From a virus: a DNA stretch of 64,000 nucleotides. The notes below the pieces were generated by a model that searched no databases, was not told where the DNA came from, and saw only the letters and a list, made by a program, of their open reading frames with translations. A program made the position numbers and the translations under genes. Positions 12,481 to 51,800 of the stretch are shown piece by piece. Within the stretch, counting starts at the first letter, position 1, and each line of letters starts with the position of its first letter. Location of the stretch: positions 1 through 64,000 of IMG/VR virus record IMGVR_UViG_3300038425_000083; one strand, written 5' to 3'.

Positions 12481-12852
12481 ATGAGACAAGCTGAAATAAC
12501 TACAATAGACGAAGAGTTCAGAAGTAGACATCCTGGCCCAGTAGTAGATGGCTTAGAGAAGTCTAGCGAATCTGCTAAGAAAGCCTGGCAAACAAGACGT
12601 AGAGGATTTAAGGGTATACGAAAAGTTATCCCAAGAGTCGGGAGAACAAAAGCGGAACAAGAGTTCTTGAAGAAAGAGAACAAGGGAATCCAAAAGCTTT
12701 ATGCCGATGTCTATGGTAAAAAGAAAGCAAGCAAGATCCTTCAACACGTCAAGGAGGCTACTCGGCAAGGTTTGATAAAGCCTGGCATGAAGAAGACTCC
12801 GAGCAAATGGAAAGAGTATCTAAAGAAACGTGAGATAGAAGCAGGCAACTAA
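12481..12852 (+). CDS. tagged basic protein (putative internal head protein)
   Basis: ITTIDEEF leader and LEK-SSESAKKAWQTRR tag. Confidence 0.6.
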   Translation: MRQAEITTIDEEFRSRHPGPVVDGLEKSSESAKKAWQTRRRGFKGIRKVIPRVGRTKAEQEFLKKENKGIQKLYADVYGKKKASKILQHVKEATRQGLIKPGMKKTPSKWKEYLKKREIEAGN

Positions 12853-13664
12853 TGAGTTGGTGCGACCTTAGTGGATTGAGATTTGGCAAAGTAACAGTCG
12901 AAAACATGGCAGGCTCCACTACGAAGAGTTTGTTATGGAGATGTATATGTGATTGTGGCAGCGAAATTGTAGTAGAGACAAATGCCCTCACTAATACTTT
13001 AAGTTGTGGACATTGTAAACCTGGCATAAGAAAGAGAGCAAAGACTAAACCTAATTATAGACATCATTGCAACATAAACTTTGTAGATAATCCCAACGAG
13101 GCAACCGACCTAACAGAAGGGAGACGTGCTGAATATAATCCGAAATACCAGTATGAGGGTCGATGGAAAGCCGACGTTGAACGTTATGAGAGGAGACATG
13201 AAATGATTTGTGAAAGATGCGGATGTGAACTGAAGATGGGTCTTGGTGATTTAACAAGAGGACAAGTTGTTGAACTTCTCGAGCAGGCCGTTCTGGATAA
13301 GAAGATAGATGATATCAAATTGTTCCGGTATGAAGGAAGTCGTGGAGCTTGGCCTTTTACCAAAGAGGAGGAAGCAATCTTAAGAAGTTATCTGCCTGGC
13401 TTCGAAGCCTATGAGTCAGGGGTTAGAAGAGTTATAAGAACAGATTCAGATCAACCCCCAGGCAAGAGAAAGTTTGTTAGAAAAGTTAGAACCAAAGATC
13501 GTAAGATGGAAGAACCTCCTGATCTTGAAGAGTTTGGGAAGAGTCTAAGAAACTTTGGAAGAGTTTCTGGTATAACAGGACGAGAAGGTCTTGACCTTAA
13601 TGATGTAACGATTGGAAGAGACGAGTATGACCAAACTCCAAGGGACGATCCGGCAAACTTTTAA
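12852..13664 (+). CDS. fusion of an HNH/AP2-associated N-terminal Cys domain with a domain paralogous to 15006..15410; contains RRVIR
   Basis: DLSGLRFGKVTV...WRCICDCG...SCG N-terminus. LTRGQVVELLEQAVLD...ILRSY aligns with LTKRSAIDLLEKAVMD...ILLSY. Confidence 0.55.
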   Translation: MSWCDLSGLRFGKVTVENMAGSTTKSLLWRCICDCGSEIVVETNALTNTLSCGHCKPGIRKRAKTKPNYRHHCNINFVDNPNEATDLTEGRRAEYNPKYQYEGRWKADVERYERRHEMICERCGCELKMGLGDLTRGQVVELLEQAVLDKKIDDIKLFRYEGSRGAWPFTKEEEAILRSYLPGFEAYESGVRRVIRTDSDQPPGKRKFVRKVRTKDRKMEEPPDLEEFGKSLRNFGRVSGITGREGLDLNDVTIGRDEYDQTPRDDPANF

Positions 13665-13688
13665 AACATAAAAGTAAAGGAGCCTGTT

Positions 13689-13967
13689 ATGTGGAAACAT
13701 AAAATTGAAGATGACGGTAAGATTTTATTCTGGAAAGATGAAGAGAATGATGGAGGACAAAGTCCATCGGAACAAAAGATGCAGACGTTTTGGATTTGGG
13801 ATACAAGAGATCTTGTCGATCTAAGCAAGGACATCGACCAGGCAAAGCTTGACTATTCTAAAAAGTTTAAACACAATCATTCAAAAGAAGCTCGGAGAGT
13901 TATAAGAACAGAAAATGATTCCTCTCCGATGAGAATGAGAAAGTTTGAAGGACTTGTAGTACAATAG
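13689..13967 (+). CDS. hypothetical protein with RRVIR, paralog of 11720..11920
   Basis: SD AAGGAG; similarity visible by eye. Confidence 0.65.
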   Translation: MWKHKIEDDGKILFWKDEENDGGQSPSEQKMQTFWIWDTRDLVDLSKDIDQAKLDYSKKFKHNHSKEARRVIRTENDSSPMRMRKFEGLVVQ

Positions 13968-13975
13968 GAGCTCAC

Positions 13976-14821
13976 ATGATTGTTAAAGAAAAAGGCGGGT
14001 GGAGTGTTAAGTCAGAGAAGGGTAAAAACCTTGGGGGCCCATACAAGTCTCGAGCTCAGGCTAAGAAACGTCTTGCAGAGGTTGAGAAGTTCAAACACAT
14101 GAATAAATCAGTATCAAGCTATAAGACACAATCTCCCTGGCCTTGGGAAAAAAGTATACCAGATCAGTTTTATTACATCAATGAAGGCGGAGCCGATCTT
14201 GCAAAGACATCTGAAGGAGCTCGTAAAGCATGGGAGACACGTAGATCGGGTGGAAGTCGTAGGACAGAACCTTTCCGATCAGGCGAGCCCAGGTTCACGA
14301 AAGAGGAAGAAGAGAAAGCTAAGCAGCCTACATGGGATAGTGTCCAGAAAGAAAAGGATGAATTGATTGGAATAGCCAGAGCTCATGGGATTGAAGTTGT
14401 AGATAGTTCTTATAACACTTTAGGAATCAAAGACCCGGAGAAGAAAGCAGACATATATGAAGGAAATGTTTCATTAAAGTTTTATCCCACACCGGTCGAA
14501 AGAGCAGGACAACCATTTAGTGCCCCTTGGACTAACGATCAGCATAAAGATATGATGGCTAAGTTTCAGCATATTAGAGATCAGGCAAAAGAGAAAGGGT
14601 GGAAAGTTGAGCCTCGAGCATTGCCCAATGTTCTTATAAGAGGCAAGTCAATAGGAAGTGCCCGAGCAGGAACAAGTCGATGGATGCCTTCATACTATGT
14701 GACATATCTTACTAAGCAGGCACTTATGACTGCAGCTCCACAACTGAAACCAAGACGACAGATGCAACTTGACAAAACTCTTTATGTTGTCTTGGACTTG
14801 AAGAAGTCAAGAGAGGATTAA
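13976..14821 (+). CDS. tagged multi-module protein (putative internal head protein)
   Basis: N-terminal IVKEKGGWSVKSEKGKNLG...AKKRL module, LAK-TSEGARKAWETRR tag, C-terminal LYVVLDLKKS. Confidence 0.6.
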   Translation: MIVKEKGGWSVKSEKGKNLGGPYKSRAQAKKRLAEVEKFKHMNKSVSSYKTQSPWPWEKSIPDQFYYINEGGADLAKTSEGARKAWETRRSGGSRRTEPFRSGEPRFTKEEEEKAKQPTWDSVQKEKDELIGIARAHGIEVVDSSYNTLGIKDPEKKADIYEGNVSLKFYPTPVERAGQPFSAPWTNDQHKDMMAKFQHIRDQAKEKGWKVEPRALPNVLIRGKSIGSARAGTSRWMPSYYVTYLTKQALMTAAPQLKPRRQMQLDKTLYVVLDLKKSRED

Positions 14822-15412: not shown

Positions 15413-18400
15413 ATGGAATACGTCATTATAGAGAAATCAGCTGAAGGTTCTAAACGAGCATGGCAAACACGTAAACATGGCGGTTCTCATAAAGAAGCAG
15501 AGAAGCCTAAACCTAAAGGCCCGGAGATAGACGCTCTTTTAACTAAGGAAGATAAGCTAAAAGAACAAGCTCTAAGAAAAGAAGTCGAAGTTTTTTCTGA
15601 CGGCGACCTTTCTGCTTATGTCCAAGTCCTGCGGAAAAAGTTACAAACGAAATCCTGGAACGAATTAAATGATTATGAGAAAAGATTTTATCCTCTTGTT
15701 CTTGATGAGCAAAGCAGGAGAAGACGTAAAGCTCTTGGGGCTATATTTGCTATAGAGATACCAGAGGTGCGTCTTGAAGATGTCAAGGAAAGAAAATCTC
15801 AACCAAGGAAGGTTTTAATGAATTCACTTCATGTAATCATAGAAAAATCAAGTGAAGGTGCTAAGAGAGCATGGGAAACAAGAAGACATGGTGGAAAGCA
15901 TCTTGGCCCCGAGAAGCCAAAGTCAGCAAAGAAAGAGTTATCAGAAAGAGTTAGAGAACTTTCAGATGAACAACTTCAAGCTACTCATGAAAGGCTTGAC
16001 AAGATACCATATTCCCAGATGAAGCCTGATGAAAGGAGACTATCTCATCTTGTAGCTTATGAACTGATAGAAAGAAAGAGATTAAGACCCATTTCTCAAG
16101 ACCCAATGGGAAGTCTTGCCAGGCAGGCTGCTAAAAAGGAAAGCGATGAACAGAGACTAAGAAGGAAGGGGCCTATTGAAACCCCTGGATTACCTGAAAG
16201 AGAACCTGAAGTTGTTGAAGAATTTAAAGTTGGAGACAAAGTCAAACATCCTACTTATGGAGAAGGAGTTGTTAGTGAAGTTCGCAAGATGAAAACCGGG
16301 ACACCAGTTTATTATGTTAAGTATCCAGGGCGTGATTTGGCCTTCGCTCATGGAGACGAAGAGCTTGAAAAGGTTGAAGACGTAGCTAAGCCCAAAGAAG
16401 AAGTAAGCATGGGTACCAAAGTTCAGAAGTTAAAAGATAAGATCGAACAACAGCAAGCCGAACGGTATGCGAAAGACTATCCTCATGTTGAACCTCCTAA
16501 AGTTACAGTCAAAGAGGGAGGGAAATACATTCGAGTTGACGTTGGAACTTCTGGCAAATACATGGTTGAGAAGGACACCGGGAACATCTATGGTATCAAA
16601 GGCTACGGAGTTATTCATAGAGGTCATTTCTATGGGACTTTGGATACGATAGATGATTTTAACTGGGGCGACTATGCAGCGTTTAGGACATTGTCTTTGA
16701 AAGATAGAGAATTCAAGGCTGAAAAGCCAGCTGAGCCGTCAGGTGTTGTTAGCATGGATACAGTCAAAGAAGATGTTAAGAAAATGCAAGAGAAGATCAA
16801 TGCTCCTTGGGTTCATGTCCAGTCTTCAGATTTAGGTGGAGCAAAGAACGTTTCTATAATCATAAAAGCCTCGATGCAAAAGAAAGAAGAGTGGCATAAT
16901 AACATACTACAGAACTCTCCCTATACAATGTTTCATTTGCTAACAGGTGGGGTGTTAGAGCAATTTCAAAGAAGCCCTGATTTGGATAAACTCGGAGCAT
17001 TTAGAAAGACAAAAGTTAAGAGTGTGGTTGAAGCTATTCAAAAGATCAATAGCTATTTGAATCCACCATTACCGCCAAGGAGAAAAATGCAGATCAAGAA
17101 GGGACAGATGTTTGTTATCATAGAGAAAGCCAGAAAGATTGGTTCTAAAGATAGTAAGAAGAGAAAGCGTAGAGGACAGAAAGAAAAAGAATTATATGAA
17201 TTTTCTCACAAAGCAGCGTATGGACATTTGCCGTCATCTTCAACTCCATTTAAAGATGACTCCATTAGATTCAAGAAAGCTGATATCCAGGTTCAACCAT
17301 TCACAAGGACAGTCAAGGGAAAGTTTCAAAGAGTTCAACAGTTCTTTAGACCTGGCAAGGAAAGCTATCCAGGAACAGAGAAGGGAGTTAATGACTTCAT
17401 AAAGGATCATGTCGGACTTAGCAACTATGGGCATATCGTTGCAGACGAAGCAAAGAAGGAAGTTGATGTTGACGTTGCTGCGACAAACGCTTTTATGTCT
17501 GTTATGGGTCATGTTGTTGATAAAAAGGAGAAGCCGTCCTTAATCGCTAAAATAGGGTCTAAAATCATTTCAAGAGGTGAACAGCCTACAATCCTTAGGC
17601 AGTTAGTCCAGAAAGATAAAAAAGCCTTCCAGGGGCTTTTAAAAGAACTCTTTAATAGGGTTCATGGGGATGTTAGAGAATTTAAGATGGAAATGGGCAA
17701 GTCCGTTGAAGGAATGCCTGTTGAATCGGTTAGAGCTCTTGCTGTTAGCCAGGCCATGAGAGAACTCAAAAAATCAAAATCTCCCGAGAAGGAAGAACAT
17801 TGGAAGTGTAATAAGTGTGGGCATGAATTAGATGCCCCACATGAAGAAATGCTTAAAAGAATGGTGACTTGTCCTGAATGTGGAGGAGCAATGGAGGAAC
17901 TTAAGAAAGCTGGCTCAAGCGATGCTGCTCATAAAGCATGGCTTAAAAGAGAAGCCGAAAGAAGAGCTCTAAGAACAAGAGAGCGTGAAGGAACTAAGTT
18001 AGATGAACTCTCAGGACTTCAAGAAGCTGCAAGGAAAACCCGGGAACGAATATTTGCTCCAGGGAGAACAGTTGAAACTCGGGGTAAGCGTCAGCTTACA
18101 GGAAAGGTAGTCAGGATAGTTGGAGATGCCCAGGCAAAAGTTCAATGGGAAGGTGGGTTGATAACCATTGAGCCACTCATAGATTTAAAGCCAAAAGTTG
18201 ATTTAGATATAAATCATCATGACCACATAGTTAAGAAGGGAACGTCAGAAGGAGCAAAGAAGGCCTGGTCACAAATGCAACATCAAGTTGCAAAGATTGC
18301 AGGTGTTCAAGAGAAGGTTAGAACTAAACAAAAGAATCAAGAAGAGATAGAACGACAAAAGAAACTTAAAGAAGGGGCCAAAAGTCTCAAGCGATTGGGT

Positions 18401-22353: not shown

Positions 22354-23238
22354 ATGAAAGACAAAATGCGTAAGAAAGTTAAAAACACAAAAGCCTGGAA
22401 AGTACGGCATGTGATTGCTGTTAAGGAAGAGGCTAAGACAAAAAAAGACATGATTGAAAAGGGAGTCAGTATGAAAGTTCAAGTTATTAGTTTAGATGAG
22501 GAGTTTGAAAAATCAACCGAGTCTGCCAAGAAAGCTTGGAAGAAAAGAAAACATGGGAAAGCATTCCAGTTCGGAGAAGGACGTGGTTATGTAGGAGGCC
22601 CGCCAGAGGGAGATCCATTTCCTCATAAGAGATCGTTAGGCTGGAAGAAATGGATAGAGAGAAATCCGGACTGGATTAAAGAGCATCCAAAATGGAAACC
22701 CCCAAAAGTGACAGGTATAACTTTTAGGAGACCAGGCTCAAAACTAAAGAAAGCCGAAGGACAAGTTGTTATTCCGGCTCACATGGCAACCGTCCATGGT
22801 AAGAAAGTTATGGTTCAGCAATCAATACCTTTCATGGCTCCTGGAAGACACGGAGATTATACCAAGAAAGTTCACACAACGGAGAGGGAAGAAGGGGGTA
22901 AAACTCATATCAAATATCATACAACTGATGTAGTGTCTTTTGATTCCAATGAGATAACCTTAAGAGATGGTGGATGGATGACAAGTTCCACAAAGAAGAG
23001 AATTAACCAAGCTTCAACAGAGCATGGACTTGGCATTAGCATCTTTCAGCATAAGAATGATTGGTTTGTTGCATACAAAGGAAAGACTATTCCTTTCAGA
23101 GACGAAATGACAATCAATCGTGAAAGAGGAGATACTCATTATGACAAATGGTTTGATATGACAGAGAAGGAAAAGAAAACTCTGGCAAGTTATGAAAAAC
23201 GGTATCATCGAGCGGAAGAGATGGCAGGCCGCAAATAG
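22354..23238 (+). CDS. tagged protein (possible internal start at 22471)
   Basis: VISLDEEFEK-STESAKKAW, an LKK-A junction, and a C-terminal YHTTDVV...GGWMTSSTKKRINQ domain. Confidence 0.6.
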   Translation: MKDKMRKKVKNTKAWKVRHVIAVKEEAKTKKDMIEKGVSMKVQVISLDEEFEKSTESAKKAWKKRKHGKAFQFGEGRGYVGGPPEGDPFPHKRSLGWKKWIERNPDWIKEHPKWKPPKVTGITFRRPGSKLKKAEGQVVIPAHMATVHGKKVMVQQSIPFMAPGRHGDYTKKVHTTEREEGGKTHIKYHTTDVVSFDSNEITLRDGGWMTSSTKKRINQASTEHGLGISIFQHKNDWFVAYKGKTIPFRDEMTINRERGDTHYDKWFDMTEKEKKTLASYEKRYHRAEEMAGRK

Positions 23239-23239
23239 C

Positions 23240-26200
23240 ATGGAACAGATACAAGCTGTAAAGAAAACAATTTATGGGACTCCTGTTTACTTTGTTAAAT
23301 CCTCTGAAGGATCAAAGAAGGCATGGGAAACAAGAAGATATGGCGGAAGTCGCAAAGACCTTACTAAGATAAAGCAAGATCATGAAGACCTAAAGAACAA
23401 ATACAAAGACCTTATAGAATGGAGTAGAACAGACTCATGGGAGAGGCCAGAGTTCTCTGGTTCGCCCGAGACCGTAAAGAAGTTCATAGCAGACGTTCAA
23501 ACTCATCATACGAAGATGGTCGATGCTTTTGGAAAGAACAAAACGAACATAGGTATCGAGGAGGATTTAGGAAGAGCAACCAAGAACCCTAATGTTCAAG
23601 GATCGTTTGGTAATGCTTTAAGTGCTCTTTATGGGATGGAAGATAAGATAAGATGGCTTAACCGCTATCTCCCAAAGGAACAAGAGAAAGGGTGGAAAGG
23701 CAAGGAAAGATCAGAGGCAAGCTGGAAGGAGCTCATGTCAAAGTCATCTGAAGGAGCAAAGAAAGCATGGCTAACAAGAAAATATGGCGGAAGTCACGCA
23801 GCATTAGAAGACAAGAAGTCTAGAGAATCTTTCAAGAAAGAGTTTTCGCTCAGTGATGTTGAAGGCGGTTCTAAAGATGATGTTCAGAGGCTTCACGAAT
23901 CTTTAAAAAAGATAAATGAAAAAATACAGATTGATGGGAGAGGTAAACTATCCTTCAGTATTAAAGCCCCTCTTCAAAAGACTTGGTTCGGAGATTTCGA
24001 TGAGGGAAATGATACCATAGAGATACATCCGAAACATCTTGAGAAAGTTGAACATGAGTATCTTCATTTTGTTTTTAAATACAGATTTGGAAATCCTATG
24101 AGAATAGGCCCAGATCATTACGATAAGTTTGGAAGTAAAAGATTTAGTATTCTTGACCAAAAAGAAATACCCGATTATGAATCGTTTAAAAAGGTAAAGT
24201 CAAAAGGATCATACGAGGATTATCATAAATTTGCAAGGGCGTTCGGTCGAAAATTATTTAAAAAGATAACTCCTGAAGGTTTAGAAGATTCATTTGATGC
24301 ATTTATTAAAAAGGTTGCAGATAATAAATCTTTAGATGGGGGGAAGAAAAAAGCGTTTACAGAACTTCTTCAAATATATAGGAACTTTTATACGAAACCT
24401 GGTATCTTAAAAAAGATGCAAGATTTGGTAGATCTCCCTGTTTATGCATTAGAACCTACAGAACTCTTTGCGAGAGCTGGGGAACTTTACATGCATGGAA
24501 CAACTTGGTCTTTGGATGTTATCGAAGCTGATCTTACAGGAGAACAGGATTTAAAAGAGGACAAAGCCAAGAACGTAGCTTCAACTAAATTATTTCAAAG
24601 TCAGATTAAAGGGTGGGGAAACAAATATCTTAAAACCGGAGTTATGAGTAAATCTCTTTTTGTTATCTTTGAGAAATCTTCGGAGGGGGCAAAGAAAGCT
24701 TGGTTGACAAGGAAGTTCGGAGGAAGTCACAAAGGAGAAGAGAAGCCAAGTCTTAAGGGTCTTTCTTCTAAAGCTATTTTAGAGATGAGTCCAGAGGATC
24801 GTGAGAAATATCTCAAAGACATGGATTCATGGAATGAAAAGTTTGGCATTCCTAAAAAGATTGAGGTATCCGAAGCCAACATTAACAGATTTGTCGATAA
24901 ACCAGATGAGGCTATAAGAGAGTATAACAGCATCCAGCAGAAGTATGAGATAAAAAAGAAAACAAGTGTTAAGAAAACAAAGAAGTCTAAATCTAAACCT
25001 AAACCATTTAAGATGCAACTGGTCATTCCTCATGAGGAGACTGAAAGGAGAATTCATGAACATCTTCAACAAGCGAAAAGAGAATCGTCAACGACACGTT
25101 ACTTGGAAGGACGTACTCACGATGTGGACATATGGACAAAAGAGGATTTATTGGCTGCAGTGCCTAAGTCTCCAAAAGGTTCTCAATTCTATGCCAAAAC
25201 AAATGTCCAAAACATCAAGCGGGTCTTAGAGTTTAAAAAACCAAATGAAGTAGGTGGGATTCATACAATCGTTGTTCTCGAGAATGGTAAACCAGTTTAT
25301 CAATACATTGATACCACAACAGAGAAGAACTCAAGGAAGAAATTTGTACGATCAAAGAATGTCGAAAAGAATATTGGGGAGATACGAGCCTTCTATAAGA
25401 AAGGAATGGGCAAAACTGGATATGACAAGCAGATGGGTACTATCCTTTCATTGATTGACCTGTATACTATTCGGGTAGGAAGCAAAGCAGATGTTGATGA
25501 AGGTGTGAGGAAAGTTGAAGACTTAAAGAATAGAGCTCTTATTAAAGCGCCAAAAGATATAGCAAGAGTACCATATGGGCTACCATATGATCGAAACACG
25601 GTTTATTACGTTTTTATTAAAGATGGGCAAAGGCTTATCGGCCCATCCGAGAGAATGGATGAGATCAGCGATGAGATCAACGAAGCCAGGAAGATAAAAG
25701 ATAAAGCTAAAGTAGAAACTCTTAAGCAAGAGAAGAAAGACCTTGTTAAACCAATGCCCGAGGATTGGAAGGAAGTTTATAAGTTAGGACACTTTGGAGC
25801 AACCCAGTTAGAGGCCAGGCATGTCAAGATCGAGCCCGAGTATAAAGGAGTTGGAACTAATTTTGGAAGTGTTGTTCACCTTGATTTCATTGGTAAATCT
25901 GGGGTTCATTGGGAGTTCCCAGTTAATGATACTGGAATTGCAGAAGCTTTAGCCGATCTGTCCAAAGGTAAGTCCGGGCGTGATCCTATATTCCCGGATG
26001 TTAAATATCAAAAGGTTACGGGTTTGCTCAAAGATAATTGGAAGTGTCTTGCAAAAGATTTTAGAACTTATCATGCAACAAAAACATTTGCTGAAGCAAC
26101 TAAAGATTTTCCAGTCCCAAAGACAGAGCAGGAACTCAAATCAATAGAAGGTCAGATATTGGAAAGAGTTTCTGGTTTGCTCTGGAACACGAAGGGAATG

Positions 26201-26704
26201 GCTAAGAAGTCTTATATTGACCCTGCTGTCTATGGAGCGTGGAGAGCAGGCTTATTAAAAGTAATGATGGAAGCTGCCCCGATTAAGAAGTCATTGCTTT
26301 TTAATGTGATCTTAGAGAAATCAGTTGAAGGCACAAAGAAAGCATGGCTAACAAGAAAGTATGGAGGTTCCCACAGAGAGCAGAAAAGCTACTATACAAC
26401 TTCTGGTGCTATGACGATGAAGGAGTTTATAGAAACTGAAGTTGAAGATAGAGGGAACTATCCTTTATCTGAGGTTAGAGGCTGGATTAAAAAGTATGGT
26501 ATCAAAAGAGATCAGCAAATTATGTGGGTATCCCCCAAGAAGTGGAGAGCTTATAGCTATACTCTTCCGGCAGAGGAAATGGATTCTGCAAGAGATGTAG
26601 ATGAATCTAAAATGGATGTTACCGAAGTCAAAGGTAAAGAAGGTTTTATAATTCCAGAGTCAGACGATGGAAGCGAAGGTTTTTTATTTGTTTTCAAGAA
26701 TTAA
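23240..26704 (+). CDS. tagged polyprotein with zincin-like (HEYLH) and DNA topoisomerase IB domains
   Basis: Four SEGxKKAW tags. TopIB motifs IRVG, GATQL...HV, FIGKSGV, KDFRTYHAT and NT...KKSYIDP (Tyr codon 26213). HEYLH...ELFARA. Confidence 0.85.
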   Translation: MEQIQAVKKTIYGTPVYFVKSSEGSKKAWETRRYGGSRKDLTKIKQDHEDLKNKYKDLIEWSRTDSWERPEFSGSPETVKKFIADVQTHHTKMVDAFGKNKTNIGIEEDLGRATKNPNVQGSFGNALSALYGMEDKIRWLNRYLPKEQEKGWKGKERSEASWKELMSKSSEGAKKAWLTRKYGGSHAALEDKKSRESFKKEFSLSDVEGGSKDDVQRLHESLKKINEKIQIDGRGKLSFSIKAPLQKTWFGDFDEGNDTIEIHPKHLEKVEHEYLHFVFKYRFGNPMRIGPDHYDKFGSKRFSILDQKEIPDYESFKKVKSKGSYEDYHKFARAFGRKLFKKITPEGLEDSFDAFIKKVADNKSLDGGKKKAFTELLQIYRNFYTKPGILKKMQDLVDLPVYALEPTELFARAGELYMHGTTWSLDVIEADLTGEQDLKEDKAKNVASTKLFQSQIKGWGNKYLKTGVMSKSLFVIFEKSSEGAKKAWLTRKFGGSHKGEEKPSLKGLSSKAILEMSPEDREKYLKDMDSWNEKFGIPKKIEVSEANINRFVDKPDEAIREYNSIQQKYEIKKKTSVKKTKKSKSKPKPFKMQLVIPHEETERRIHEHLQQAKRESSTTRYLEGRTHDVDIWTKEDLLAAVPKSPKGSQFYAKTNVQNIKRVLEFKKPNEVGGIHTIVVLENGKPVYQYIDTTTEKNSRKKFVRSKNVEKNIGEIRAFYKKGMGKTGYDKQMGTILSLIDLYTIRVGSKADVDEGVRKVEDLKNRALIKAPKDIARVPYGLPYDRNTVYYVFIKDGQRLIGPSERMDEISDEINEARKIKDKAKVETLKQEKKDLVKPMPEDWKEVYKLGHFGATQLEARHVKIEPEYKGVGTNFGSVVHLDFIGKSGVHWEFPVNDTGIAEALADLSKGKSGRDPIFPDVKYQKVTGLLKDNWKCLAKDFRTYHATKTFAEATKDFPVPKTEQELKSIEGQILERVSGLLWNTKGMAKKSYIDPAVYGAWRAGLLKVMMEAAPIKKSLLFNVILEKSVEGTKKAWLTRKYGGSHREQKSYYTTSGAMTMKEFIETEVEDRGNYPLSEVRGWIKKYGIKRDQQIMWVSPKKWRAYSYTLPAEEMDSARDVDESKMDVTEVKGKEGFIIPESDDGSEGFLFVFKN

Positions 26705-26918: not shown

Positions 26919-27467
26919 GTGTATTACGTCATCTTAGAGAAATCGAGTGAGTCAGCAAAGAAAGCGTGGGAGACCAGGCGAAGAGGTCTTGGCAAACAAA
27001 AGCCTACAAAGAAACAATCTGAGAAGAAATCTGAAGCTGAGTCGCTGGCGAGAGCTAAAAGAATTATAGCAAAATACCCCACATGGGAATCTTATCATGA
27101 ATCCCAGAAGGGCACGAAGTATAAAGATTTCATCGGTAGAACTCAAGTCGTAAGAGATGCTGAACACGACAAACGCAATTCAAGATATATGTGGGAAGCA
27201 GCAAAGCAATGGGTTGATGCAGGTGGAAGCCCGGCAAAGAAATCAGCTATCAAATGGGATAAAACTCTTTCTGTAGCCCCGGGAGGAAAAGGTTATTTCT
27301 ATACAGCAAACACTCCGAGAGGAAGAGTTTGGGTTGTATGGGATAGGGTCAACAAGAAGTGGAAAGTAGATCATGATTCTGGTAAGCCAAGTCATGAATC
27401 TATAAAACACGAACGTTTCAAAACTGCCGAAGAGGGATTGAAGGCCGTGGCTAAGTGGCTTGAATAA
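26919..27467 (+). CDS. tagged protein
   Basis: MYYVILEK-SSESAKKAWETRR. Confidence 0.65.
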   Translation: MYYVILEKSSESAKKAWETRRRGLGKQKPTKKQSEKKSEAESLARAKRIIAKYPTWESYHESQKGTKYKDFIGRTQVVRDAEHDKRNSRYMWEAAKQWVDAGGSPAKKSAIKWDKTLSVAPGGKGYFYTANTPRGRVWVVWDRVNKKWKVDHDSGKPSHESIKHERFKTAEEGLKAVAKWLE

Positions 27468-40414: not shown

Positions 40415-40544
40415 AAAATGTTGTTCACCTAAATGTTCAAAATGAAGCCAAAAAAGCAGAAAAGTTCCGGAATTCCGGAAGTGATTCTTCATTTTGAAGC
40501 CAAAAGCAGAATAAATTCTCAAATTGAGGATGGAAATCTCAAAA

Positions 40545-42014
40545 ATGACTCTACTTTTTCATGTAATCGATCTTCAAAAATCTTCAGAGGGGGCCAAGAA
40601 GGCCTGGGAAACAAGAAGACATGGAGGTTCCCATCAGAAGATTAAGTTAACAAAGCAGCAAGCTTGGGATTTGAGAGAACAAGAACGCAAAGCTCAAATG
40701 AATCTTCCTCTTAAAGAGAGGGCAAAGTTAAAACAAAGATATGATGAACTAAAACAAGATGCGGAATTATCTTCCGAAGAATACGCAAAGAAGTATTCAA
40801 AGGAATACGGAGAAAAGTATTTAAAAGAATATCCGTATGCACTTGAATATCGGCAAAAGATGGCAAAAGAAATTGTTTCTAAGCCATTTGAAGAACAACT
40901 TAAACTCTTCTCTGAGAAAAAGAAGCCTGAAGACATGACCTGGACAGAATACTTTGAACACAGAAAAGCTACTCCAAAGGGTCAAATGCCAGGGCAGTTC
41001 TATGCCGGAGATGTGAACCGAATACGAAAAGATTACAAGAAACTTCAGGAGAAGAAACAACTTAAACTCTTCCCAGAGAAGAAGCCCGAGAAATCTTTAA
41101 AACAAAAACAGATAGATGCTATGACTAAGGAAGAACGAAAGAAATATATGGCTCCGTGGGGAGGACGAATAGGAAAGCCGAAGATCGAGAGTAGCAAAGC
41201 TCACTTTACACCAAAAGAAGTTAGTTCTGCAATCGATAAATTGAAGACTGCTACTATTGAAGATGTTCAGGGTGGAAAAATCCCTCTTGCTTTTTACGGG
41301 GGAAATGAACTTGGCCCAGAGATTGTTGCCCAGTTTAGTAATGGCAAGATTCGTTTGTTCGATGGTTTTTTTAAGATGCCTGCGGAAGATCGCCCCTCAT
41401 TGCTTTACCATGAATTTGGGCATGAGGTTACACGTATAGCATTTGGTTATCATTCAGATGAGACTAACTCCATGTTAAAACCATTCCAGTTGGGTACAAT
41501 GAGATATGACAATTTTGCAGGAGCCAGTTATCGTCCAGATGAAATGATAGCGGATATCTACTCAGAGGCGATGACCGTCAAGGAACCGATATGGGAGAGC
41601 GGTGGGAAGTATGAGCGAATGACAGATTACATTCTTAATATTGCTCATAGTGCAGGGTTACCCACTCCAAAATGGTTTACTTCTAAGTCCGTTCCTGAAA
41701 AGGTTTACCCTGCAGGTTATAAACCAGAATCAATAGATGAATGGATGGATTGGCACGAGAAGCATAAAGATGAGTTAGAACGGAAGCAAGAGAAGCGAGA
41801 TGTCTTATTTAAGAAGAGTTTTTATCCTGGAACATTAGCGATGACCGCTGGTAAAGATTTACCACGTCCTCGGAAGATAAAGGATGTAGAGAGGTTGATA
41901 AGAAAAGTCGAAAAGAATGAAAAGGACCGAAAGAAAATGTTAACGGCTGATATATTACCAGAAAATCCTTTGAAGCAAACAACAGGAAGCGGCTCTCAAG
42001 CAGTTCTTGGGTAA
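40545..42014 (+). CDS. tagged protein with zincin-like (HEFGH) domain and QLxLF motifs
   Basis: FHVIDLQK-SSEGAKKAWETRRHGGSH; HEFGH...EMIAD; QLKLF twice. The start could be 40530. Confidence 0.7.
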   Translation: MTLLFHVIDLQKSSEGAKKAWETRRHGGSHQKIKLTKQQAWDLREQERKAQMNLPLKERAKLKQRYDELKQDAELSSEEYAKKYSKEYGEKYLKEYPYALEYRQKMAKEIVSKPFEEQLKLFSEKKKPEDMTWTEYFEHRKATPKGQMPGQFYAGDVNRIRKDYKKLQEKKQLKLFPEKKPEKSLKQKQIDAMTKEERKKYMAPWGGRIGKPKIESSKAHFTPKEVSSAIDKLKTATIEDVQGGKIPLAFYGGNELGPEIVAQFSNGKIRLFDGFFKMPAEDRPSLLYHEFGHEVTRIAFGYHSDETNSMLKPFQLGTMRYDNFAGASYRPDEMIADIYSEAMTVKEPIWESGGKYERMTDYILNIAHSAGLPTPKWFTSKSVPEKVYPAGYKPESIDEWMDWHEKHKDELERKQEKRDVLFKKSFYPGTLAMTAGKDLPRPRKIKDVERLIRKVEKNEKDRKKMLTADILPENPLKQTTGSGSQAVLG

Positions 42015-47331: not shown

Positions 47332-47739
47332 ATGGAAGAAAGAGCTTGGAGGAACATAAGTATCGGAAAGACAGATCGCCCTGTGTTATGTCCTGATCTT
47401 ATTCGTCAGAGATGTGTCATCGAGTTTTTGACTGATTTGGACATGAATGACTTTGATTTCATGGAGAAACACCTAACGAAGTTTCTCCATGATTTGTCAA
47501 AAACCTTGGATATGAGGATATTCATGGGGCCGATTATAGGGAACGACAGAAACGAACTTACTGGCGAGAATGGTCCCTCAGCACTTGTAGGATGGACTAC
47601 TTCGGGTTGCCAGATTCACTCTTGGCCTTTCAGAAAGTTTGTATCGATTGATATCTATAGCTGCAAAGCGTACGATGTATTAAAGGCATTCAAACTTGTG
47701 ACTAAATATTTTAATCCTGTTATTGTGGACATTCGTTAA
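47332..47739 (+). CDS. S-adenosylmethionine decarboxylase-like pyruvoyl proenzyme
   Basis: GPSALVGWTT-SGCQIHSWP....SIDIYSCK, the SpeD/SpeH pattern with the self-cleavage Ser. Confidence 0.75.
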   Translation: MEERAWRNISIGKTDRPVLCPDLIRQRCVIEFLTDLDMNDFDFMEKHLTKFLHDLSKTLDMRIFMGPIIGNDRNELTGENGPSALVGWTTSGCQIHSWPFRKFVSIDIYSCKAYDVLKAFKLVTKYFNPVIVDIR

Positions 47740-48554
47740 TGAGGATGCAAGTCTATTTAAGAAAGTTGTTTAAAGTCGTTAGTGAACGGAGGCTTTGGCT
47801 TACTGTTCTTGGGAAAACAGGACGCCAGTATATCTGGATTGTTCGATCAACTTTAGAGTTTGATCATGACAGGCCAAACTTTTTAATTGCTGCAGGTTTT
47901 CATGGAGAGGAGATTGCCGGGCCTTTTGCGATTCTGAAATGGCTTGAAACTGCAACTCCAAATCAACTTGCAAAGGCCAATTTTACATTTTTACCAGTTA
48001 TGAACCCGATCGGATTTAACAGAGGTTCTCGGTATGCTCGAGCAGGAGAGAAAACAAATGCTGGCTTCTATCACGTAGAAGAAAGCAAAGATGTTCTTTC
48101 AACAGAGGGTCAGATTCTTATGGAGAATGTTGACTTTCTGATTAAGGCTGCCAGGGATGGCTTTCTTAGTTTGCATGAGGATGAGACTGTAGATAAGTTC
48201 TATGTTTATGATTATGTAGCAGAGGAGCGAGCCAAGCCAAGTTCTTTTGCAAGAGCTATGAGAGATGAGGAGAAGAAGTTTTTTGATGTCATTGCGGATA
48301 ATACCCCTGTCAATGAGGAAGGCGATCCGAATGCAGTTGTTTGGGATGGGATTGTTTATCATTTGTGCGATGGTAGTTTTGAAGACATGTTAATGCATAA
48401 CGGAATACCAAGAGCTATAACTACAGAGACCCCATCACTTGGCATCGGATTGGAAAAAAGAGTTGAAGCTGGGGTTGCGTTAATAACAAAATTTGTTAAT
48501 TTATCTGTTAGACGTTCCAGGGTTATGTCAAAATATAGGAGAGATAAAGAATAA
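47739..48554 (+). CDS. M14-family deacylase (succinylglutamate desuccinylase/aspartoacylase-like)
   Basis: AGFHGEE, PVMNP.G, SLHED and TTETP. Confidence 0.8.
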   Translation: MRMQVYLRKLFKVVSERRLWLTVLGKTGRQYIWIVRSTLEFDHDRPNFLIAAGFHGEEIAGPFAILKWLETATPNQLAKANFTFLPVMNPIGFNRGSRYARAGEKTNAGFYHVEESKDVLSTEGQILMENVDFLIKAARDGFLSLHEDETVDKFYVYDYVAEERAKPSSFARAMRDEEKKFFDVIADNTPVNEEGDPNAVVWDGIVYHLCDGSFEDMLMHNGIPRAITTETPSLGIGLEKRVEAGVALITKFVNLSVRRSRVMSKYRRDKE

Positions 48555-49313: not shown

Positions 49314-49839
49314 GTTTGTTATTTTAGAAAAATCTAAGGACTTTCCAGGAGGCTATTACTATATAGACCTTGACAAGACGCTCGCATATCATAAAACCGA
49401 ATGGGGGGCAGATGTCATAGGTAAGCCACTTCCTAAGATGTTGAAAAAACTTAAGGGCTTATTGCGGAATGGAAAGAAGATAAAGATTTTCACTGCAAGA
49501 GCTACCGATAAAAAAGCTGTTAAAGAAATTCAAGCTTGGTTGAAGGAAAATAAATTACCCCGCTTTGAAGTTACCAATATAAAGGGAACTGATGTCATTG
49601 AGATATGGGATGATAGAGCAAGACAAGTTGATCCTAATACTGGAGAGTTTACAAAAGCGCAGGGTGGATACGGGGGCTCTCGAGTTCCTTTGATTGGATT
49701 AGGCCTACCAGGTTCTGGACAGTTTCGTTCTCATAAATTGGGGAGATCAGAACGGAAGAGGTTAGCTAAAAGAAAACGTATAGAGCGAAAGAAAGAACGG
49801 AAGGAAGATATAGAAGCATATGGCGAAGCTCTTGACTAA
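49306..49839 (+). CDS. HAD-family phosphatase with FVILEK-S leader
   Basis: DLDKTLA, FTAR, K and WDDRA: a capless HAD of the polynucleotide 3'-phosphatase type. Confidence 0.75.
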   Translation: MYKFVILEKSKDFPGGYYYIDLDKTLAYHKTEWGADVIGKPLPKMLKKLKGLLRNGKKIKIFTARATDKKAVKEIQAWLKENKLPRFEVTNIKGTDVIEIWDDRARQVDPNTGEFTKAQGGYGGSRVPLIGLGLPGSGQFRSHKLGRSERKRLAKRKRIERKKERKEDIEAYGEALD

Positions 49840-49987
49840 TTATGTCATTTTGAAAAAGGCTGAGAAGAAGTTACCAGATCATAACTCTATGCAATTTCAC
49901 AAGGAACTTTTTGAAGTAGAAGATGATCTGATGGATTACTTAGACACATTGGAGAAAGAACCAAAGCATGAGGCTCGTAATTCTTAA
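49820..49987 (+). CDS. small leader-bearing protein (55 aa, not in the ORF track)
   Basis: MAKLLTNYVILKK-AEKK... Confidence 0.5.
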   Translation: MAKLLTNYVILKKAEKKLPDHNSMQFHKELFEVEDDLMDYLDTLEKEPKHEARNS

Positions 49988-51800
49988 ATCAAGCGAAAGT
50001 GCACGTAGGGCATGGGAAACAAGAAGATATGGAGGTTCTCATACAACCCTATCGACCGAACGCTCTGAATATTACAAAGAAAGAGAAAAGCTTGACAAAG
50101 AGGTTTTTCTTAATGAGCTTCCAAAGTTTAGGGAAGAACTTAACATAAAAAAGTTTTATACAAAATTTCCTAAAGTGTCTTCTCAGATCGAAGAGAAGTT
50201 TCGAACTATTACTGAAAGTTACAGAAGCGGTGGTTTAGATGACTTGGGTGCTAAACCAGAAGAAGTAAGAGAGAAGATGCAAGTTGTTAAAGATGAAATA
50301 AAATCGTGGGGCGACAAACTTCAATTTAATGGAAGAGGTAGACTGTCTATTAAAGTCGGCACCATACCAAAAAGAGGAAGACATAAAACCTATGGTATGT
50401 ACTACCCTGGGATTCAAGTTTTAGAAGTGGATCAAAGATACAAAAATTCTATAGCTCATGAGTATGCTCATTTTATTTTTGATGACAATGGATGGGAAGA
50501 TAGCTACAAAGATAGTTTAGTTCATGGGAATTTCGATGAGGCTTATGAATTTGGGTTTACGAATTTTTTAGAGAAATTTTCTCAAGATATGGAATTTGTT
50601 CCCTCTGACATAAGTTCTGCAGGCACAGCTGCTACAATTAAAAATCAAGGGAAAGCACTTATAGAACTTTTCGCTCAGCTAAAAGATTTTTATAAACTTC
50701 CAGATGTTATGGAAAAATTTAAGAAAAGTCAAGACCCTCCTATCATTTGGGCGTCTACTGAGGCTTTATCGGATAAGCAAAAGCTTACTCGAGAACGGAT
50801 TGAACGGACGTTCGCCAGAGGAGTTTATAAAAGAGTTCAGAATCGTATGAAGTATCTATTTCGTCCAACCGAAATATTTGCAAGAGCTGTTGGGTCATAT
50901 GTATCAGAGGATTTTATTTCTAACCCGGTTGAAAAAGATGATAGATACAAGGCAATTGTAAAAGCCTGGGGTGATAAGTATCTGAAGACTGGTATTGTGA
51001 AGAGTTATGTGATTCTTGAAAAAGCCCAGATACAGATTAAGCCTTCTTTTAGGCATACGGCTTCTGGTAAGATAGTTCCTGTCAAAGGATTTACAGTTGA
51101 AAGGGAAACTTTTGAGCATGCCGTTCTTGCCGATGAATTTTTCAAATCACTTAAGGAGATTGAAGGATCAGATTGGCAATTTGAACCCGGCGAAGTTTTT
51201 GATATGGGTGATAAAATAAATGTTGAAGTTAGATTGTGGGACCGAAGTAAGAATATCACAGAACTTGAACCTTATAGAGCAAAGGGAACTTCTTTAACAC
51301 GCTATAAAAAGATGTCTGGATACATTGGTCGTTTTGAATTGAATTTTCTTAAGAATGGGAAAGATGTGTATCTATCATCTTTATTTTTAAAAGACGAGTG
51401 GCAAGGTAAAGGTGTTGGCAATGATTTAATGAAGCGAGCTATAGACTTTGGAATTTCTAAAGGCTTCAAAAGTTTTGAACTCTTTGCAAATGGGGATGTC
51501 GGAACTTATGCGTGGGCTATCCAAGGATGGGATTTTGTTAAGAAAACAGAGAAACAAGATTTGCTTGGAGACTTTTGTAAATGGCTAAAGAAAAAATATA
51601 ATGTAGAGAAAAATCCTCTGGATTTTCCTCATGCTTGGAATATAGCAGCGTTTAGAATAGGAGATGAGAAAGTCGGAAAAAAATTTATGACTGGAGATGG
51701 TCATAATGATTTCTGGGAAGGCGCTCTTAACGTTGGTAGCAAAGGCTACAAATTGTTTAAGGAATATCATAGATTAAGGTTACTAAGGAAAATGAGTTAG
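49968..51800 (+). CDS. tagged polyprotein with zincin-like (HEYAH) and GNAT domains
   Basis: LVILK-SSESARRAWETRRYGGSH; HEYAH...EIFARA...WGDKYLKTGIVK-S; YVILEK-A; WQGKGVG...GTYAWAIQGWDF. Confidence 0.75.
   Translation: MRLVILKSSESARRAWETRRYGGSHTTLSTERSEYYKEREKLDKEVFLNELPKFREELNIKKFYTKFPKVSSQIEEKFRTITESYRSGGLDDLGAKPEEVREKMQVVKDEIKSWGDKLQFNGRGRLSIKVGTIPKRGRHKTYGMYYPGIQVLEVDQRYKNSIAHEYAHFIFDDNGWEDSYKDSLVHGNFDEAYEFGFTNFLEKFSQDMEFVPSDISSAGTAATIKNQGKALIELFAQLKDFYKLPDVMEKFKKSQDPPIIWASTEALSDKQKLTRERIERTFARGVYKRVQNRMKYLFRPTEIFARAVGSYVSEDFISNPVEKDDRYKAIVKAWGDKYLKTGIVKSYVILEKAQIQIKPSFRHTASGKIVPVKGFTVERETFEHAVLADEFFKSLKEIEGSDWQFEPGEVFDMGDKINVEVRLWDRSKNITELEPYRAKGTSLTRYKKMSGYIGRFELNFLKNGKDVYLSSLFLKDEWQGKGVGNDLMKRAIDFGISKGFKSFELFANGDVGTYAWAIQGWDFVKKTEKQDLLGDFCKWLKKKYNVEKNPLDFPHAWNIAAFRIGDEKVGKKFMTGDGHNDFWEGALNVGSKGYKLFKEYHRLRLLRKMS

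Follow-up and report, generated by a model that had tools for sequence, protein, structure and literature searches.

A repeated basic peptide at module boundaries of phage head-region proteins, possibly a header retained on capsid cargo

The window analysed here is a stretch of 64,000 nucleotides (positions 1 to 64,000) of the 76-kb IMG/VR virus record IMGVR_UViG_3300038425_000083, an uncultured phage from peat/wetland metagenomes. Its portal, prohead protease, scaffold and major capsid protein (MCP) form a head module of the Herelleviridae type, related to that of SPO1/K-like phages: the MCP matches phrog_752 (E 9e-100) and has 46% identity to Bacillus phage YungSlug, the prohead protease matches phrog_1028, and scaffold and portal also match Herelleviridae-type proteins. 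A C39-like peptidase is encoded in the same region (46581-47321). All copies of a short peptide centred on SEGAKKAW, hereafter the tag, lie between the large terminase gene (TerL, 9528) and the MCP gene (genome position 67073), around the portal gene and the gene for the MuF polyvalent protein (Table 1).

The initial annotation had reported 16 copies in ten proteins, four each in ORFs 15413 and 23240 (the latter also read as 23192), and our six-frame fuzzy search and profile search recovered them all, on the plus strand and in frame within 10 ORFs of the window. Over the full record the profile search yielded 17 copies, one of them degenerate; the seventeenth lies just beyond the window (genome 65218-65274), in the prohead protease. 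Codon-shuffled controls gave 0.04 matches at no more than two substitutions against 14 observed, and 1.27 at no more than three against 17 observed, one of the latter, at 40444, being a chance match. Eleven of the 17 copies are internal rather than N-terminal, and in 6 of the 11 tagged proteins of the genome there is just one tag, with one C-terminal region behind it. The MuF polyvalent protein has no tag: it shows the same leader-K|A junctions, but with other basic peptides behind them. The closest relative's ortholog of ORF 32857-33900 has a different basic peptide in the tag slot, and a relative's ortholog of ORF 36370-37188 keeps LEKA, with the tag replaced by another basic peptide.

Table 1. 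Tag copies in the window and the landmark genes of the region.
Feature	Sequence	Coordinates	Strand	Context
Large terminase		9528..11171	+	Upstream limit of the tag-bearing region
Tag copy 1	KSSESAKKAWQTRRRGFKG	12559..12615	+	ORF 12481-12852, aa 27-45
Tag copy 2	KTSEGARKAWETRRSGGSR	14204..14260	+	ORF 13976-14821
Tag copy 3		15434..15490	+	ORF 15413-18436, behind 8-residue N-terminal leader MEYVIIEK
Tag copy 4		15845..15901	+	ORF 15413, aa 145-163, behind HVIIEK; low-confidence inter-domain stretch of the model
Tag copy 5, degenerate	GSSDAAHKAWLKRE	17912..17968	+	ORF 15413, aa ~834; profile score 40 bits
Tag copy 6	GTSEGAKKAWSQMQ	18239..18295	+	ORF 15413, aa ~943; G-T-S form, as usual in other phages
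Tag copy 7		22510..22566	+	ORF 22354-23238, 5' of Kyano_Gp96-like domain (aa 176-254)
Tag copy 8		23297..23353	+	ORF 23192/23240-26704, head of module 1, which is the stand-alone gene P0016 in a relative
Tag copy 9		23741..23797	+	ORF 23192-26704, head of module 2
Tag copy 10		24674..24730	+	Head of type IB topoisomerase module (Pfam, aa 866-1003)
Tag copy 11		26318..26374	+	Behind the topoisomerase module; heads the last module of ORF 23192-26704
Tag copy 12		26940..26996	+	ORF 26919-27467, behind N-terminal leader (M/V)YYVILEK
Tag copy 13	TASEAAKKAWETRKFGGSH	32920..32976	+	ORF 32857-33900; preceding K absent
Tag copy 14		36949..37005	+	ORF 36370-37188, aa 194-212
Portal protein		38013..39683	+	Places the tagged genes in the head-gene region
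Tag copy 15		40578..40634	+	ORF 40524-42014, behind 19-residue leader; 3' of portal gene, two small ORFs between
Tag copy 16		49986..50042	+	ORF 49968-51800, behind 7-residue leader MRLVILK; GNAT domain at aa 451-505
MuF polyvalent protein, 2230 aa		55083..61775	+	MuF, GHKL ATPase, CCA-adding/HD

Along these proteins, a preceding domain or a hydrophobic leader of 7-20 residues ends in a junction residue (K|S here), a conserved capped helix of the form (G/K)(T/S)SEGA(K/R)K(A/G)W-x-TR(R/K) follows, and a glycine break and a hydrophobic-poor linker of about 10-15 residues lead into the next globular module. The tag thus lies between domains, with a short flexible linker behind it, and in the model of ORF 15413 the tags fall in low-confidence inter-domain stretches. 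When Pfam domains were mapped against tag positions (n = 11), none was interrupted by a tag; the single overlap is in P0168, where the Mu-like_Pro envelope (122-301) spans the tag (249-271), so that not every mapped domain is tag-free. ORF 23192 comprises four tag-delimited modules, among them the type IB topoisomerase (TopIB), and ORF 15413 carries a Zn ribbon and a beta domain. A stand-alone 158-aa protein of a relative (P0016) equals module 1 of ORF 23192, with a junction at either end, and TopIB is among the domains found again behind tags of different polyproteins, which agrees with the earlier suggestion that modules are swapped at the tag or junction. Because, the P0168 overlap apart, no mapped Pfam domain is interrupted, the tags are inter-domain and P0016 is bounded by junctions, the tag, as judged from sequence, marks module boundaries.

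Selection acts on the tag peptide. Identical residues are encoded by the same codon in 45% of pairs against 37% expected, the other 55% differing; serine codons include both TCN and AGY and arginine codons both CGN and AGR, and mean nucleotide identity between copies is 61%. Since codons at identical residues are almost randomised, selection operates at the peptide level, as the initial annotation had argued from synonymous variation. It had also listed exact DNA matches, namely an 18-mer at 15869, 23321 and 50010 and a 25-mer at 23757 and 26334, and these are present, as are others of 24 and 20 nt. Between two copies, however, the longest identical run has a median of only 8.5 nt, and given such short matches and the low nucleotide identity the accompanying proposal that microhomology may drive module shuffling is not supported.

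The peptide is undescribed, and it is not private to the window phage. A profile search found about 190 metagenomic proteins with 1-8 copies each, in phages of 39-65% GC with unrelated capsid, protease and portal genes, among which no common MCP or protease could be recognised by sequence; their hosts apparently span bacteria and perhaps archaea. The Herelleviridae-type head is a feature of the window's phage and not of the tag family: Mu-type and other heads also accompany the tag, and the link to Herelle-type heads raised initially is not supported. Among the tagged proteins are MuF polyvalent proteins, Mu-type proteases and portal-toxin fusions: the tag lies inside the MuF proteins P0025 and P0135 (a co-occurrence with MuF fusions that the initial annotation had proposed to look for), between a Mu-type portal and a PBECR3 nuclease in P0169 and P0175, and directly behind the Mu-type prohead protease domain in P0165 and P0168, as it does in the window phage's own protease. 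Effector domains on tagged proteins comprise ART, zeta-like kinase, LigT, Acb1, TopIB, ParB, HNH, NUDIX and RelA/SpoT, and several domains are combined in P0025 (MuF, LigT and ART), P0133 (ART-PolyVal and GNAT) and P0028 (ParB and GNAT). There are also small basic proteins made of 3-5 tandem tags, and a widespread variant has the AT-hook-like ending TRGRGR. In one carrier (G002) the portal gene is distant from the tagged genes, which weakens the case for a virion location in all carriers. With the same peptide standing ahead of enzyme modules in phages unrelated to one another, the tag has the appearance of a portable label for capsid-carried proteins.

In our searches the tag turned up in no Pfam model, solved structure, paper or cultured phage. 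No Pfam-A or PHROG match covered the tag residues in the 10 window ORFs, in sets of 8, 10 and 10 metagenomic carriers, or in a bulk scan of 57 carriers, and a profile search of the PDB gave nothing below E = 2. The Pfam family PF22129 (CjCas9_WED-like, 39 positions, 24-bit cut-off) was considered and rejected, as it gave only 12-residue partial matches of 11-14 bits to some tags of two carriers (G002 and G003); it has no match in the window phage's genome, and no Cas9 chain in the PDB matches the tag profile. The whole-protein scores of P0028 (29.2 bits) and P0116 (24.8 bits) exceed the cut-off, with no single stretch passing alone, and we read that of P0028 as its three tags added together.

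A lysine stands four residues before the G of SEGAKKAW in 14 of the 17 copies, which bears out the statement that the tag almost always directly follows K; two of the remaining copies have G there, with K or KK ahead, and one has T. Across the family this residue is lineage-specific and tracks the type of head protease, K|S accompanying the Herelle-type protease and N|[AS] being found wherever the head is Mu-type (G006, L011, P0165/8, P0169/75). In the MCP, LNK|AL(A/E)AG is conserved between the window phage and SPO1-like Goe2, in whose scaffold h-x-K|S is abundant. Because LNK|AL is kept with Goe2 and the junction residue changes with protease family, the tag junction is probably a maturation-protease site, and the tag would then head each module directly behind the cut, as first described. 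The tag would be dispensable for cutting or head entry, since the MCP, the scaffold and several leader-only ORFs lack it, and cargo fused to portal or MuF would already be inside the head.

AlphaFold2, given a 27-row tag alignment, predicts a helix with pLDDT ~85 over SEGAKKAWET, in keeping with the basic helix proposed at the outset; in a single-sequence model the first tag is not helical. Net charge is about +2.4 over the 15-residue core and +2 to +10 over 30-residue windows from the junction residue, which include ~12 residues of downstream linker, and the pI of all tagged proteins is 8.5-10.3 versus 4.6 for the scaffold. Other peptides occupying the tag slot are also strongly basic. The positive charge, these slot peptides, the TRGRGR variant and the tandem-tag basic proteins together make polyanion binding plausible. 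For a DNA binder the core is only modestly basic, with four or five basic residues beside two conserved acidic ones, and its strictly small residues at three positions and invariant Trp are equally compatible with tight helix-protein packing.

We tentatively favour, as a possibility rather than a probability, the reading that effector modules travelling inside the phage head bear the tag as a portable header, which would most likely act as a handle on DNA or some other polyanion. Polyproteins and single cargo proteins would enter the prohead, where the phage's own maturation protease would cut at the junction and leave the basic helix, on its flexible tether, at the new N-terminus of each freed module. 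As a polyanion handle the helix may first hold the very acidic scaffold core and then, after maturation, packaged DNA; if it holds DNA, each module would for that reason stay with the genome and leave with it at infection. The partner of the tag seems universal, because its carriers share no MCP or protease by sequence and span such a range of GC contents, and a universal partner such as DNA would explain how one peptide works across unrelated capsids, portals and proteases. The initial interpretation, in which the helix becomes the new N-terminus of each cargo and tethers it to packaged DNA or signals ejection, is thus partly supported; cleavage, DNA binding and a role in ejection are what we infer. 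The position of the tag behind protease domains, in two protease families, also fits a role in cutting or loading, and counts against the header reading.

An encapsidation signal is a doubtful but serious competitor to the retained header. The helix would dock on acidic scaffold, inner capsid or itself and gather cargo before DNA arrives, by analogy with the T4 capsid-targeting sequence, the HK97 protease tail and encapsulin loading peptides. This would suit the prohead protease, which must be loaded and is tagged both here and in Mu-type phages, the avidity expected from several tags per polyprotein and from tandem-tag proteins, the opposite pI of scaffold and tagged proteins, and P0031, in which three tags are joined to a C-terminal domain that is very acidic and weakly matches the 'Scaffold' Pfam model (E 0.04); self-association would also account for cross-lineage conservation. 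Yet portal- or MuF-fused cargo is tagged though it needs no loading signal, leader-only ORFs exist, each internal module keeps a selected copy where one per polypeptide would suffice, and no detectably related capsid or scaffold protein was found among the carriers as a candidate common receptor. Rather unlikely is a prime-side flag for cutting, whereby the helix would bind an exosite of the assemblin-fold protease and direct cleavage just upstream. The tag does lie 0-2 residues from the putative scissile bond in all lineages, and at expected cuts (protease|scaffold, portal|toxin, leader|cargo), but the essential substrates MCP and scaffold and several leader-bearing ORFs have junctions without it, and the tag of ORF 32857 has no preceding K. 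Moreover, the tag is constant while P1 residue and protease family vary, so unrelated proteases would need the same exosite, and tandem-tag proteins would end as 20-residue pieces.

Less probable again is an address used in the host, by which the helix would target ejected effectors to nucleoid, RNA or ribosome without any capsid role. Counter-defence and host takeover typically employ such a set of effectors, a universal partner would be required here too, and a tag on each module suits a need that arises after separation; tagged prohead proteases are hard to account for, however, and hosts that are bacteria and perhaps archaea share few targets beyond nucleic acid, so that this explanation collapses into that of the retained header. 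Removal of leader and tag by the C39-like peptidase, cutting behind GG as in double-glycine leaders, is very improbable. A C39-family enzyme is encoded nearby and GG occupies the same position behind the helix in 10 of the 17 copies, but GG is not conserved throughout the family (just 116 of 232 copies have G at +6, with many variants reading RRANGW or RRAKY), the hydrophobic positions of such leaders (-4, -7, -12 and -15) are basic here, position -4 being R/K, and a C39-like counterpart is absent from four of five other carrier phages, the fifth having only a 12.5-bit match. We give slightly less credence still to a DNA-level cassette, its repeats kept because microhomology promotes shuffling and not for a peptide function. 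Exact matches of 18-25 nt between some copies, and module fission and fusion at the junction, would fit it, but the nearly randomised codons, the family switches of Ser and Arg, the low nucleotide identity and the short median match speak against it, as do the persistence of the peptide in genomes of 39% to 65% GC and the absence of recombinant contigs from four peat or wetland runs.

Among known systems, the capsid-targeting sequence of T4 is an N-terminal signal on the internal proteins IPI-III and Alt that is removed by the prohead protease gp21; these proteins are basic cargo ejected with DNA, and their signal precedes the cut and is discarded. The leaders described here (MEYVIIEK|, MRLVILK|) look like its counterpart. 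The tag itself fails as such a signal: it stands behind the putative cut, would stay on the cargo, is mostly internal and repeated in polyproteins, crosses lineages and is dissimilar in sequence. For phiKZ-like phages and SPN3US we know only of a 3-residue cut motif (S/A/G-x-E), and of no conserved retained header. As far as the available text describes them, inner-body and ejection proteins of these jumbo phages undergo propeptide processing, the prohead protease cutting many head-internal ejection proteins at a short consensus (PMC10052503, PMC7411985); the capsid lineage of the window phage is different. The closest precedent for a tether role, in the part of the source available, is the P1 Dar system, where DarA-Hdf sits at the capsid inner surface and on DNA, and processed, packaged anti-restriction proteins leave with the DNA (PMC12810830). 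On the same account, binding there uses folded domains of dedicated proteins, unlike the short portable tag, and there is no sequence relation.

In phage-type polyvalent proteins, unrelated effector domains (ART, ParB, nucleases, kinases, MuF) are strung together in one polypeptide, and the genes lie among those for the head; the available text proposes packaging, processing by zincin or papain-like peptidase domains within the proteins themselves, and delivery to the host (Iyer, Burroughs, Anand, de Souza and Aravind 2017, PMC5512222). Term searches of that text turned up no conserved inter-domain header peptide. The domain census of tagged proteins matches this set, with at least two unrelated domains and a position among late or head genes with MuF. 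Here, by contrast, a motif of ~20 residues punctuates the modules, adjoins a putative prohead-protease site and also heads single-domain proteins; given the six single-tag proteins, the tag is wider than the polyvalent family. Basic units of ~20 residues, single or in tandem beside unrelated catalytic domains, are also familiar from the minor-groove helix NUMOD3 of homing endonucleases and from AT-hook/RGR motifs. The tagged and tandem-tag proteins scanned had no Pfam match to models of this type, and the TRGRGR variant resembles the AT-hook core by analogy only.

A fuzzy six-frame search of the window recovered the 16 copies of the tag, a basic peptide that heads protein modules, at the positions reported in the initial annotation; they lie in 10 ORFs, all on the + strand and all in frame. 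A profile made from these copies (A1) retrieves 16 of 16 and adds a seventeenth in the prohead protease gene (genome 65209-65268), and 14 matches with at most two substitutions were observed versus 0.04 in codon-shuffled windows. The local consensus reads h-h-h-E-K-S-S-E-G-A-K-K-A-W-x-T-R-[RK]-x-G-G-S-H, with KSSEGAKKAWETRRHGGSH as a representative peptide; among the 17 copies its A and W are invariant, its E and R almost invariant, and K stands four residues ahead of G in 14. The exact DNA matches between copies noted earlier are present, and the longest exact match between copy pairs has a median of only 8.5 nt. The same codon is used at shared residues in 45% of cases, compared with 37% predicted from random draws on this genome's codon usage, and Ser and Arg codons alternate between both codon families. 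Such near-random codons and family switches place selection on the peptide and not on the DNA, as had been proposed, and every internal copy appears to be retained by selection.

No described family was found to cover the tag. Neither Pfam nor PHROG holds a model covering it in the tagged ORFs of the window or in the metagenomic carriers scanned, no PDB chain contains it (nor any sequence relative of the prohead protease), and 50,697 cultured-phage records gave no tblastn match to a four-tag polyprotein, a 20-kb stretch or the 28-aa tag. Literature searches with motif strings across 8.4 million papers returned nothing relevant, and an ESM Atlas search with the tag region returned generic helix matches only. 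Identity with PF22129 (CjCas9_WED-like) was rejected: its matches are weak and partial (12 residues, 11-14 bits), occur in some carriers and number zero in this genome. Searching 1.84 billion representative proteins with a profile gave 94 hits at E <= 0.001, at least two copies being present in 73 of the 90 in which the tag could be placed; a second search, of a 5.8-billion set, found 95 at the same threshold, overlapping the first in part. The consensus of 232 copies is h-x-[K/A/N]-[A/E/S]-G-T-S-E-G-A-[KR]-K-[AG]-W-E-T-R-[RK]-x-G, where the invariance of Trp is by construction and three positions hold small residues without exception. The hydrophobic fraction of the 10 residues after the tag is 0.12 against a background of 0.24, and the upstream flank is of normal composition. 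Spacing between tags is bimodal: 18-37 residues, in tandem arrays inside small basic proteins, or about 155-220 residues, the size of a domain. The tag thus appears, from these searches, to be one undescribed family wider than this phage. Among its members, the P0020 cluster (including P0095 and P0096 from Nitrososphaerales MAGs), P0021, P0023, P0031 and P0051 are small, very basic proteins of 3-5 tandem copies in the SEAAKKAWETRR form; P0031 also has, at its C-terminus, a strongly acidic domain that weakly matches Pfam 'Scaffold'.

From a 27-row alignment of the tag, AlphaFold2 predicts a single helix (pLDDT ~85 over SEGAKKAWET) that stops ahead of the glycines. In a single-sequence model of residues 1-333 of the four-tag polyprotein ORF 15413, which is of low confidence overall, both tags fall in low-confidence stretches (1-40 and 123-168), with better-predicted modules on either side. 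The idea that tags mark domain boundaries was borne out by mapping: none of 11 Pfam domains is interrupted by a tag, the exception being the Mu-like_Pro envelope of the metagenomic protein P0168 (122-301), which overlaps its tag at 249-271, a stretch that we read as a protease/scaffold boundary. TopIB (aa 866-1003) is flanked by tags at 499 and 1047 and the LigT domain of P0015 (853-998) by tags at 829 and 1037, while P0028 has one tag heading ParB and one heading GNAT.

Module swaps at the tag, also anticipated, are illustrated by P0016, a stand-alone 158-aa protein of a relative that is 66% identical to residues 32-185 of the other four-tag polyprotein, ORF 23192, which is precisely its module 1. 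P0016 opens with the leader MFYVIIKK|SSEG, and its last residues are ...LMSKA, the following junction, so that it represents a single module bounded by junctions. The closest relative compared, whose portal is 56% identical over the N-terminal half (E 1e-110), has zero copies of the tag; where ORFs 32857 and 36370 have it, the orthologs in that relative show other peptides, also basic, in the same slot, so that tags are interchangeable cassettes. The hydrophobic leader x-[YF]-V-I-[LI]-[EK]-K|[SA] is also found in this genome without the SEGAKKAW tag, preceding either a domain directly (in the HAD-like protein at 49306) or basic peptides of other sequence (ARKIGSKDSKKRKRR; ARSHKYLRKIPRGSGRYEY), which makes leader and tag separable. 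In this closest relative, G001, the portal ORF (L004:10001-13201) is 1066 aa long, compared with 556 aa in this phage, and the C-terminal extension of about 500 residues is possibly fused cargo.

The junction ahead of the tag, a putative protease site, varies with head type. It is K|S in this phage, where h-x-K|S is abundant in the scaffold, as it is in that of the SPO1-like phage Goe2, and where the capsid protein N-terminal LNK|ALAAG corresponds to LNK|ALEAG of Goe2; alignments to Staphylococcus phage capsid proteins begin at residue 26. In all carriers whose protease or portal is Mu-type, N|[AS]G precedes the tag (G006, which has PF10123; the L011 contig; P0165/P0168; P0169/P0175), and other carriers have Q-A| (G002) or H-E| (L019). 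A junction that tracks the protease beside a constant tag is what a cut site joined to an independent functional peptide would look like, and it offers a testable rule of cleavage specificity for prohead proteases that have never been studied. The prohead protease itself, at 515 aa versus 253 aa in Goe2, is twice the usual length. Behind its catalytic domain, residues 247-273 (LAAGHDNPASSGGISGSALRRQSLD) copy the N-arm of the major capsid protein (residues 28-52); because the Goe2 protease has the same mimic, K|S site included, this appears to be how Herelleviridae in general position the protease in the shell.

Carriers retrieved from IMG/VR with a degenerate DNA pattern of the tag include two complete genomes of about 120 kb with terminal repeats and records of 109, 68 and 56 kb. 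The GC content of these carriers is 56-65% versus 39% in this phage, and none has a capsid protein or a protease with detectable similarity to those described here. When six carrier genomes were compared all against all, no protein family proved common to the six, and Peptidase_S78 is absent from the five other carriers. A universal partner in the portal family, a MuF-linked domain or TerL was rejected, each occurring in at most four of the six; any partner would have to occur in phages whose head proteins are unrelated. The expected co-occurrence with Herelle-type portals and MuF fusions stood for MuF, the tag lying within MuF proteins (P0025, P0135), and was not borne out for the Herelle type, since Mu-type and other heads also carry it. 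Among 185,579 species-representative genomes the DNA pattern occurs in only eight contigs, all from MAGs (Kiritimatiellae, Verrucomicrobiales, Bathyarchaeia, Methanomicrobiales).

Domains in carriers comprise ADP-ribosyltransferases, zeta-toxin-like kinases, LigT, anti-CBASS Acb1, type IB topoisomerase, NUDIX, HNH, SNF2, ParB, GNAT, RelA/SpoT, InPase and MuF, the polyvalent-protein repertoire, and most tagged modules have no Pfam match. In P0165 and P0168 the tag immediately follows a Mu-type prohead protease domain, paralleling the seventeenth copy here, behind a Herelle-type one; in P0161, a small RelA/SpoT protein, it follows a 10-residue N-terminal leader. P0169 and P0175 have a Mu-type portal domain, then the tag, then PBECR3, a barnase/EndoU/RelE-like nuclease thereby fused to the portal; with such a fusion, twelve copies of the toxin would sit at the portal vertex until cutting at maturation released them. 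In L019 (IMGVR_UViG_3300047586_000336), four adjacent small ORFs of 82-139 aa have the leader ...TNKEVFGKLHE in common, each with the tag next and then an unrelated C-terminus, a compact array of tagged mini-cargo genes.

We tentatively favour, at somewhat less than even confidence, a tag that is a retained N-terminal DNA-binding handle, possibly scaffold-binding earlier, keeping freed modules with the genome for co-ejection. Before packaging it may be bound to the acidic scaffold core; at the N-terminus of the freed module it would bind DNA, and the module would stay with the genome through it and be ejected along with the DNA. The net charge is about +2.4 for the 15-residue core and +2 to +10 for 30-residue windows including the linker, and all tagged proteins have a pI of 8.5-10.3, the scaffold, capsid protein and portal being acidic. 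Alternative peptides in the tag slot are likewise basic, a TRGRGR ending is a common variant, and proteins made of tandem tags alone exist; together with the positive charge, these features point to a polyanion partner and hence to DNA.

A loading signal, including clustering through tag-tag or tag-scaffold contacts, is unlikely, because portal-fused and MuF-fused cargo is already in the head and the tag is thus dispensable for entry. It is equally dispensable for cutting, given its absence from the capsid protein, the scaffold and the ORFs with a leader only, so that a prime-side recognition element for the protease is quite improbable; to a host-side address we give very little credence. A double-glycine/C39 leader is scarcely credible, co-occurrence of C39 with the tag having been tested with a negative result, and a DNA-level recombination cassette is still more remote, its codons being near random and its exact matches short. 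A Walker-A reading of GTSEGAKK was discarded for wrong spacing, and self-cleavage at G|T or S|S for want of a fold context. Beyond a DNA-binding handle, it is possible, if doubtful, that the tag is a self-sufficient, lineage-independent cargo label, any bearer of which, placed after the local protease site, stays with the packaged genome and is injected: one address code in several unrelated lineages (Herelle-type, Mu-type and other heads), beside a few interchangeable alternatives.

The opening minutes of infection are decided by proteins that enter with the phage DNA (anti-restriction and anti-CBASS factors, toxins, topoisomerases) and that, to our knowledge, are rarely predictable from sequence. 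A header found across unrelated phages would allow sequence-based listing of capsid cargo in metagenomes, give domain boundaries for many unknown effector domains and offer a candidate handle with which to bring foreign proteins into capsids. If the tag is indeed a cargo label, the set of proteins that uncultured phages inject could be deduced from sequence, and chosen proteins could be loaded into capsids by means of the tag. The system works like polyvalent proteins, as Iyer et al. 2017 (PMC5512222) present them, shares its targeting-plus-cleavage logic with T4 internal proteins, and can be likened to the DNA-and-capsid-bound Dar proteins of P1 (PMC12810830). It differs from all three in having a header that is conserved across phage lineages and putatively kept after cleavage, of which we found no description in the passages of PMC5512222 retrieved by term searches, or elsewhere.

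The IMG/VR record, whose first 64 kb are the window, is 76,068 bp (CheckV completeness 65%), with genes on the + strand nearly throughout and head genes of Herelleviridae (SPO1-like) type; among cultured phages, the capsid protein is best matched by that of Bacillus phage YungSlug (46.5%). Goe2 has its portal, protease, scaffold and capsid genes side by side, whereas here about 24 kb of extra, mostly unknown genes (window 39683-64000) split portal from protease. Three peptidase-like genes (C39-like, M14/AstE-like and papain C1-like) lie consecutively or close together.

Head, peptidase and tagless-leader features of the phage (window positions unless marked genome)
Feature	Position	Remark
Large terminase	9528-11171	
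Portal	38013-39683	
C39-like peptidase gene	46581-47321	in portal-protease insert
M14/AstE-like peptidase gene	47739-48554	in portal-protease insert
Papain C1-like peptidase gene	52792-53655	common to relatives G001 and G004
MuF polyvalent protein	55083-61775	2230 aa
Prohead protease	genome 64201-65748 (L006:702-2249)	515 aa; just beyond the window
Scaffold	genome 66280-66975	beyond the window
Major capsid protein	genome 67073-68485	beyond the window; phrog_752, E 9e-100
Tagless leader, ORF starts	45259, 49306, 49820, 53785	
Tagless leader, internal	ORF 15413 aa 572; ORF 49968 aa 352; MuF protein aa 937	

Near-identical DNA is present in many peat and wetland metagenome runs, and no RNA dataset stands among the runs listed with it. 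Contigs from four peat/wetland runs indicate a near-clonal population with zero variants within any tag. The sole variable patch in 20 kb (window 19596-19776, in ORF 19270-19974) has about 35 substitutions within 180 bp in two runs, the remainder being >99% identical, and could represent either a hotspot of diversity or a segment that has recombined. Loose contig ends at 24689/24724 proved to be only cross-matching of the ORF 32857 tag. The ORF at window 1106-2326 matches phrog_1211 (E 3e-61), a family whose annotation is adenylosuccinate-synthetase-like (PurZ-type) enzyme; this is a hint that 2-aminoadenine may replace adenine in the phage DNA. Two radical-SAM-like proteins are encoded in the record, at window 43214-44311, between portal and cargo genes, and at genome 74205-75125.
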